In this document: positions 49,443 through 50,713 of the stretch, in pieces
How the letters are laid out: every line of letters begins with the position of its first letter
How positions within the stretch are numbered: position 1 is the stretch's first letter
Assembly: GCA_963666485.2 (NCBI GenBank)
Contig: CAXXUO010000008.1
Span: forward strand, 64,001 to 128,000
Length of the DNA: 64,000 nucleotides
Source of the DNA: Syntrophorhabdaceae bacterium
GTDB lineage: Bacteria; Desulfobacterota; Syntrophorhabdia; Syntrophorhabdales; Syntrophorhabdaceae
Direction of reading: 5' to 3'
Notes under the pieces: model-generated
Databases searched by the model: none
Told to the model about the DNA's origin: nothing
What the model saw: the letters and a program-made list of their open reading frames with translations, nothing else
Program-made: the position numbers and the translations under genes

Positions 49443-49544
49443 GTGTCTTTGTATTTATTTCTTGGATTCGGGTGTGCACTACTTGAAGGTGTCACGATAA
49501 ATAAAGGTGGGCAGGGCGGAGATGGAAAACCTTGTATGATACTC

Positions 49545-49730
49545 CCCGTGGAATATCACGAACAATCCATGATAGAAAAGAGAAAAAGGTTGCCGGTGTG
49601 GCAGGCCGTAAAAACCAGGGGATGATATCCCGTATCCAAGCTCGGGCCGCCACACCTTCTCCTTATAAACCCGGACAGTTGCAGGGGACTCGCAGGAGAT
49701 CCCGCATTGCACAAGGAAGGGACACGGGAA
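49545..49730 (+). ncRNA. Putative IS110 bridge RNA (target-binding and donor-binding loops); ends approximate
   Basis: Stem GGTGTGGC/GCCACACC enclosing AAAAACC and ATCCAAG (match insertion site); second loop with ACAGTTGC and ACAAG (match circle junction). Confidence 0.85.
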
Positions 49731-49744
49731 AAAGGGGTGATATC

Positions 49745-50680
49745 ATGGACGACGTCTTCATCGGGATCGACATATCGAAAGAGCATTGTGACCTCGCGGT
49801 CATACCGGGCGGCACGCAGAAGAGGTTTACAAACGACGAGGAGGGCCACGAGGCGATCCTTGCCTTCGTACTTCCTCTCAACCCTTCCCGCATCGTCATC
49901 GAGGCGTCGGGAGGATACGAGATGGGAGCAGTGCGTACCCTGGCGGACGGCAAGCTTCCTGTTGTAGCGGTCAATCCCCGGCAGGTGAGGGACTTCGCGA
50001 AGGCGACAGGCAGGCTCGCAAAGACGGACACGATAGATGCAGGTGTCCTCGCGCAGTTCGCAAAGGCCATCGAGCCGGAGATACGGCCGCTTCCGGAGAA
50101 AGATGCCGAGGTGCTCCGTGCCCTCGTTGCCCGCAGGAGGCAGCTCATCCAGATGCTGACGATGGAGAAGAACCGCCTCGAGAAAGCGCCCGCTGCCGGA
50201 AGCGAGGATATCCGGAACCACATATACTATCTCACCGAGGCCTTGAAGAAGATCGACAAGGACATCTCGCGGACGATCAGGAAAAGCCCCCTGTGGAAGG
50301 AGAAGGAGACGATCCTCATGAGCATGCCCGGGGTCGGTCCCGTTATCTCCTGTAATCTCATCGCAGCCCTTCCCGAACTGGGGACACTGAACCGCAAGGC
50401 CATCGCGGCCCTTGTCGGGCTCGCCCCCTTCAACAGGGACAGCGGCAGATACCGGGGAACACGGACCATATGGGGAGGCAGGTCTCATGTCAGGGCCATA
50501 CTGTATATGGGGACCATCAGCGCGATCAAGTTCAATCCTGCCATCGGGGCCTTCTATAAACGGCTCGTCGAAGCGGGAAAGGCCAAGAAAGTTGCGATTA
50601 CTGCCTGCATGAGGAAGCTTTTGACCATTCTGAATACCATGATGAAGAACAAGACAACGTGGATCGAGGTCACCTCGTGA
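49745..50680 (+). CDS. IS110-family DEDD recombinase/transposase (311 aa)
   Basis: IGIDISK, VIEASG, KTDTIDA (DEDD), [15 protein letters not shown] (catalytic Ser), [24 protein letters not shown]. Confidence 0.97.
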
Positions 50681-50692
50681 AGAAGAAATCAG

Positions 50693-50713
50693 TTGACATC
50701 GAACACAGTTGCT
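50693..50713 (+). promoter_or_regulatory. -35 half (TTGACA) of the IS110 circle-junction promoter; -10 half TATGAT at 49535-49540
   Basis: Joining the ends at CT gives TTGACA-17 bp-TATGAT. Confidence 0.85.

Follow-up and report, generated by a model that had tools for sequence, protein, structure and literature searches.

Does an insertion element in this genome carry a promoter that exists only when its two ends are joined in a circle, and is the element still able to form that circle? The question was raised by a sequence-only reading of the window, the 64,000-nt stretch of a Syntrophorhabdaceae genome analyzed here, in which a −35 hexamer near the right end and a −10 hexamer near the left end of an IS110 element were claimed to come together on circularization. 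Taken as a whole, the locus very probably holds an intact and recently spread IS110-group insertion sequence of the IS621 type, with a promoter that is joined on the circle and with insertion into the tail of a REP repeat.

The element and its recombinase

The element occupies positions 49531–50713 of the plus strand, both CT cores included, as delimited by four identical copies and by comparison of their junctions. It comprises 1,181 bp plus one CT core, or 1,183 bp from core to core, with the left core at 49531–49532 (the same place at all five left ends in the genome) and the right core at 50712–50713 (4/4 right ends). The left end spans 212 nt and the right end 31 nt (50681–50711, plus strand), the latter with the −35 hexamer and a left-donor 7-mer (50705–50711). 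Within the element, an inverted-repeat search found neither an end-to-end inverted repeat nor subterminal inverted repeats between the ends.

Between the two ends lies a gene for a 311-aa IS110 recombinase (49745–50680, plus strand) that matches PF01548, PF02371 and NF033542, the IS110 equivalog, for which it scores 239.5 bits against a cut-off of 140. The best solved-structure match is ISCro4 (9t56; E 4e-38, residues 5–302), a likeness of protein sequence, and IS621 (8wt6) aligns with E 1.8e-35. Residues D9, E53, D95, D98 and S233 correspond to D11, E60, D102, D105 and S241, the residues given as catalytic for IS621 (PMC11208158). The protein combines a DEDD RuvC-like domain with a Tnp domain bearing the catalytic serine, both junctions have a short core, terminal inverted repeats are absent and insertion is scarless; the element carries every sequence-testable feature of the IS110 group. 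Elements of the IS1111 group, in contrast, have subterminal inverted repeats and carry their RNA in the right end. Membership of that group was rejected, since no subterminal inverted repeats were found here and the right end measures 31 nt; the predicted RNA lies in the left end.

The left end (49532–49744) is fully open in the phase of the recombinase, giving 382 aa from a TTG at 49532, and open frames of 383–384 aa occur likewise in two relatives; gene callers may therefore annotate the bridge RNA as coding. We dropped the 382-aa frame in favor of the ATG at 49745 because a purine-rich, ribosome-site-like stretch (49733–49740) precedes this ATG and homology starts there.

The genome (G000, 10 contigs) contains four complete copies, on contigs C2, C3, C5 and C8, with 0 differences across 1,183 bp and with unrelated outer flanks; in a Pfam search of the genome, these four were the only IS110 genes. 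AAAAC followed by CT precedes all five left ends, and CT followed by TGGATCC is found at all four right ends. The flanks of the other copies part from the window sequence just upstream of 49526. Both junctions share CTTG (49531–49534 and 50712–50715), that is, more than CT; the circle joint is unchanged whichever register inside this overlap is chosen, and only CT is common to both junctions in relatives whose right target begins with G.

The fifth left end belongs to a truncated copy (G000:C4:148775-149178, 404 bp) that retains the whole left end and 68 codons and is without a right end. A single substitution and a 3-nt insertion in the donor-loop hairpin set it apart from the complete copies; it has unchanged guides and stops at an unrelated repeat of ~134 bp with 11 genome matches of at least 110 nt. 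This copy cannot circularize; it could still give bridge RNA.

The repeat target and the predicted bridge RNA

Judged by its flanks, the element is seated in a CGTC-type REP dimer, within the inner tail of one of the two arms. The left arm, a host repeat outside the element (49413–49442, minus strand), is the 30-nt perfect inverted partner of the right arm (50714–50743, plus strand), which is further identified by arm matches and guide fit and whose first 5 nt are the right target. The dimer spacer between the left arm and the element (49443–49530) resembles the spacers of empty dimers at its start and end and closes with the left target (49524–49530). Subtracting the element leaves 90 nt between the arms, compared with 51–94 nt in 13 other inverted dimers. 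Genome-wide, 75 arm matches were found at ≤4 mismatches; CT precedes 45, and the element occupies three of those 45, a count from which the C5 arm was left out because its stem differs. Exact empty copies of the 12-mer target number 27 in the genome, and all of them (27/27) lie at a REP arm, with 0.3 occurrences expected by chance. Together with the five genomic left ends, these empty targets fix the ends of the element. The type, boundaries and CT core proposed from the letters alone all hold.

CGTC REPs are described as having an unpaired CGTC foot, an 8–9 bp stem, a 4–5 nt loop and a tail, mostly in inverted dimers (PMC3733652). The arm sequence and the dimers fit this class description, and we assign no numbered family. 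The repeat also resembles the NTS motif of Neisseria (PMC11893778). With NTS-dRS3 it shares the CGTC foot, short stem and loop, tail and frequent inverted dimers (PMC3733652, PMC11893778, PMC3898611), whereas the stem sequence differs and the integrating element here is a plain IS110; phage Nf1 integrates at one subtype of dRS3 (PMC3898611). Two short GIY-YIG genes (G000:C3:93284-93505 and C1:77120-77335; open frames of 104 and 110 aa) have five and four CGTC-type hairpins within 1 kb, with 0.14 expected per 2.2 kb. This arrangement resembles that of the Ssn nucleases as presented in PMC11893778; the stems differ from that of the IS target.

Twelve related loci were examined for the flanking genes, which in three same-genus genomes lie 140–190 bp apart with neither IS nor REP between them; both are therefore late arrivals at this place. 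A same-species empty allele of the locus was not found among 69 genomes of the family. In G002 the same intergenic space (L141, G002:C4:115400-118200) holds a different, transposase-like insertion. At four related loci (L133, L134, L140 and L143) what we take to be a 429-aa flavoprotein-like gene follows etfA; it is missing after etfA here. On the minus strand of the window, 47742–49310 encode a 522-aa protein with a C-terminal adenylate/guanylate cyclase domain and an N-terminus that, in our impression, resembles a small DNA-binding module. Upstream of this gene a 14-nt direct repeat (49344–49357 and 49377–49390) overlaps a minus-strand promoter-like site, TTGACA-17-AATTAT, and autoregulation is possible.

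A bridge RNA with putative start and end is predicted at 49546–49727 (plus strand), supported by a consensus fold of 21 sequences, namely the window and 20 others picked for spread out of 49 distinct left ends. The fold has two stem-bounded internal loops and 25 pairs, 14 of them with two-sided changes. Folded alone, the left end does no better than shuffles (z −1.18), and in Rfam it reaches no family at gathering score, with three weak matches all below it. The putative target-binding loop (49595–49656, plus strand) contains a left guide at ~49609–49616, which fits the last 5/7 left-target bases and the core C, a right guide at 49634–49640, complementary to the core and 5 nt of the right target, and a handshake dinucleotide at 49641–49642. 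In the putative donor-binding loop (49670–49721, plus strand), the left guide (49675–49682) is identical to the left-donor 7-mer (the final 7 nt of the right end) plus C, and the right guide (49711–49715) pairs with the core and 3 nt of the left end; its handshake dinucleotide lies at 49716–49717. At the five occupied sites the left guide fits only 5 or 6 of 7 bases, which we count against our preferred explanation. Two REP arms, at G000:C1:390990 and C2:58389, fit 7/7 left-guide bases yet are empty, whereas occupied sites fit 5–6/7.

Across relatives, the fit of 38 distinct target loops to their own flanks averages 12.7/15, versus 9.4 for other targets, and 31 of the 38 reach at least 12/15 on their own target versus 3.9% of 1,366 mismatched pairs. 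None of 10,000 permutations gave a mean as high, a figure that overstates the case because the relatives are kin. The same-genus IS110s (G016, loci L001-L007; G008, loci L027 and L046-L056) have 80–87% protein identity, the same donor 7-mer and the same −35 position. Sisters at 81–85% protein identity carry a different right guide and a correspondingly different right target, and one same-genus subgroup with another right guide inserts at CT then GGAAC, not TGGAT, an apparent case of natural retargeting. The modeled left-end RNA thus has two loops whose guides covary with targets across relatives. The first handshake base of the donor loop pairs with the last left-target base in 28/38 loops, and in our reading of the window element, by analogy with IS621, both handshake pairs would match the post-exchange partner with their first base and the pre-exchange partner with their second.

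Mobility of the element

The sequence-only reading took the promoter as a sign that this copy is still competent. The promoter says little about competence, for which the four identical copies and the intact catalytic residues are better support. We looked for the circle itself in contigs from three runs of a single sample, which may be where the assembly came from, and found no back-joint from 50713 to 49533; since contigs drop rare forms, this is a weak negative. The circle joint is likewise absent from the assembly contigs, and the raw-read run gave 0 reads on the stretch. Contigs of the same three runs contain six listed joints that run forward into 50712 from 49442–49473. These were rejected as an empty allele of this locus, the inserted letters of one matching the spacer of a dimer on C3; other REP dimers are their most likely source.

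Short-read contigs show the element as a single collapsed unitig, so polishing could mask small differences between copies. This feature, the lack of a circle or an empty allele of the locus in the contigs of the three runs, and the presence of a truncated, diverged fifth copy would all suit an element that is real but immobile, whose promoter would be a relic and whose identical copies would reflect age or merging during assembly. We consider such immobility quite unlikely, given four copies with 0 differences and distinct flanks, an open frame with all five catalytic residues kept, guides that still fit current REP tails, and sister elements that have inserted several times independently (seven loci in one genome).

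For a mobile IS621-like element, the setting of each copy bears on its expression. In IS621 the linear state is weakly transcribed by read-through, which is required for excision (PMC13626964). An open frame in the same orientation immediately precedes three of the four complete copies. The window copy has a divergent gene upstream and, downstream, a convergent gene with a terminator-like hairpin at ~50810–50840; with no co-oriented gene upstream and with the convergent gene terminated, it is probably the quietest of the four, near-silent, and mobilized in trans by its sisters. In IS621, supply of the bridge RNA in trans works (PMC11208160). Copy-out excision that leaves the donor site intact is described in two preprints (10.64898/2026.08.31.748434 and 10.1101/2025.10.25.684509), so that a search of reads for the empty site may be negative even if the element is active. 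Under copy-out, the promoter would work only after the circle has become double-stranded.

A predicted promoter split between the two ends

The two hexamers lie where they had been described: TTGACA, the candidate −35, at 50693–50698 (plus strand) in the right end and outside the guide-read stretch, and TATGAT, the candidate −10, at 49535–49540 (plus strand) in the left end, with its first bases overlapping the right-donor recognition stretch. Joining of the ends at the core leaves a spacer of 17 bp, and the candidate promoter then faces into the left end and toward the recombinase gene, also as claimed. Together the hexamers match 11/12 consensus bases; when 200,000 random joints were made through CT dinucleotides of this genome, 18 reached at least 11/12. 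The description of junction promoters as a hallmark of IS110 elements holds as well, having been published for IS621.

In the inserted state the promoter is divided. A plain promoter scan of the linear locus misses it, and the −35 points outward into the REP arm, as had been stated, where no −10-like hexamer lies 16–18 bp past it. Conversely, no −35-like hexamer occurs 16–18 bp before the −10 in any of the five left ends of the genome (best 3/6). Hybrid promoters of flank and IS in the inserted state were rejected, a flank −35 being found in 1/53 and a flank −10 in 1/68 related loci and neither in this genome. An extended −10 was rejected because its TG is one base off.

Conservation was assessed at 125 loci with a relative, both ends being found in 69, one in 44 and none in 12. 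Collapsing duplicates, including the window and dropping one locus with two candidate right ends gave 37 distinct junctions. A −35 with at least 5/6 matches is found at spacer 17 in 25/37 of them and at spacer 13 in 2/37, with 0/37 at any other spacer from 12 to 23. The final T of the −10 is retained in 29/37. The first three bases of the −10 prove nothing, since the ends of relatives were sought with motifs taken from the window element and these bases are fixed by the search motif. The −35, which is neither fixed by that motif nor among the guide-read bases, argues for selection on the promoter. Counted against our preferred explanation are the 11/37 related junctions without a −35 at spacer 17.

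In eight of those 11 (L012, L013, L014, L019, L060, L072, L088 and L099), a −10-like hexamer stands at +20 or +21 past the core, 17–18 bp from a TTGCTT that straddles the core, a place at which 0/26 TTGACA-type junctions have such a hexamer. Six of the eight are close kin, and the alternative −35 matches only 3/6. A second −10-like hexamer is also present 18–49 nt into the left end in 25/37 junctions (shuffle mean 11.4, maximum 21); in the window it is CATGAT at 49568–49573, with a −35 partner of at best 1/6, and it may be just part of the 5′ hairpin. From these patterns one could suppose, although we regard it as rather unlikely, that either of two interchangeable registers can serve for the junction promoter in this clade, which may also have a weak internal promoter. 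If so, the orphan hexamer could supply the low expression that starts excision without read-through and, with the guide switch between sisters, the clade would form a natural series for promoter and guide evolution.

The same left-end hexamer is consistent with a different account, in which reading by the donor loop keeps the bases around the core conserved, the resemblance to a promoter follows from this, and the element is in fact transcribed by read-through or from within. Of the −10, the first three bases come straight after the core, within the donor-read stretch, and IS621 is transcribed at a low level without its junction promoter (PMC13626964). We find this account very unlikely, because two parts of the promoter that the guides do not read, the −35 and the final T of the −10, are nevertheless conserved at a single spacing, whereas the sequence separating the −35 from the donor stretch varies among related junctions, and the second hexamer has next to no −35 here. 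A split promoter maintained by selection is thus the preferred reading.

The promoter had further been offered as an independent fix of the element boundaries. The boundaries are right, but the promoter by itself does not establish them, because spacers of 16–18 bp are tolerated. A left boundary further out, near a second CTTGGAT-like stretch at ~49461 where the dimer spacer holds CT then a REP-tail-like TGGAT, which would make the proposed joint wrong, can practically be dismissed, as all other copies match the window only from ~49526, with four other left ends refuting it, the stretch looks like ordinary REP-dimer spacer, and joining there gives no −10 at 16–18 bp.

A proposed cycle and its significance

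The ends, target, guides, intact enzyme and split promoter with its conservation are read in the sequence, and the cycle that would connect them is modeled on IS621, whose mechanism is published (PMC11208160, PMC11208158, PMC13626964). Weak expression from some genomic copy would yield recombinase and bridge RNA, and the element would leave as a circle, either by excision or by copy-out and then second-strand synthesis. End joining would set the right-end −35 17 bp from the left-end −10, and RNA starting near 49546–49547 would provide a burst of bridge RNA and recombinase. The donor loop would read the circle joint and the target loop the REP tail, after which the circle would insert at a CT core and the promoter would be split again. 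The proposed fit of the first handshake base of each loop to its post-exchange partner is of a kind that in IS621 favors insertion.

PMC11208160 describes for IS621 of E. coli a junction promoter, a bridge RNA in the left end, a CT core and the targeting of REPs. The present element shares the DEDD and serine recombinase, a long left end with a predicted two-loop bridge RNA, a short right end, the CT core, a REP target, a sigma-70 promoter motif rebuilt across the joined ends and handshake bases. It differs in its distant protein sequence, other guides, CGTC-type repeat target and anaerobe host. A promoter formed on the circle is also known from the IS1111-group elements ISEc11 and IS4321, and IS110 elements of Pseudomonas putida that target REPs or other repeats are reportedly the subject of PMC12288879 and 10.64898/2026.03.19.712850. 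Among the papers searched, none dealt with Syntrophorhabdus and IS110; supplementary ortholog tables may list the element, and it may already have an ISfinder name.

Because the mechanism is in print for IS621, the element adds no new biology. Its practical value would lie in a compact, apparently intact bridge recombinase of 311 aa whose predicted guides are fully readable, and further in a natural right-guide match of 7 nt, numerous unoccupied REP targets within its own genome and retargeted sisters. It adds a candidate ortholog to bridge-editing surveys and is a clean case of an IS110 aimed at CGTC-type repeats.
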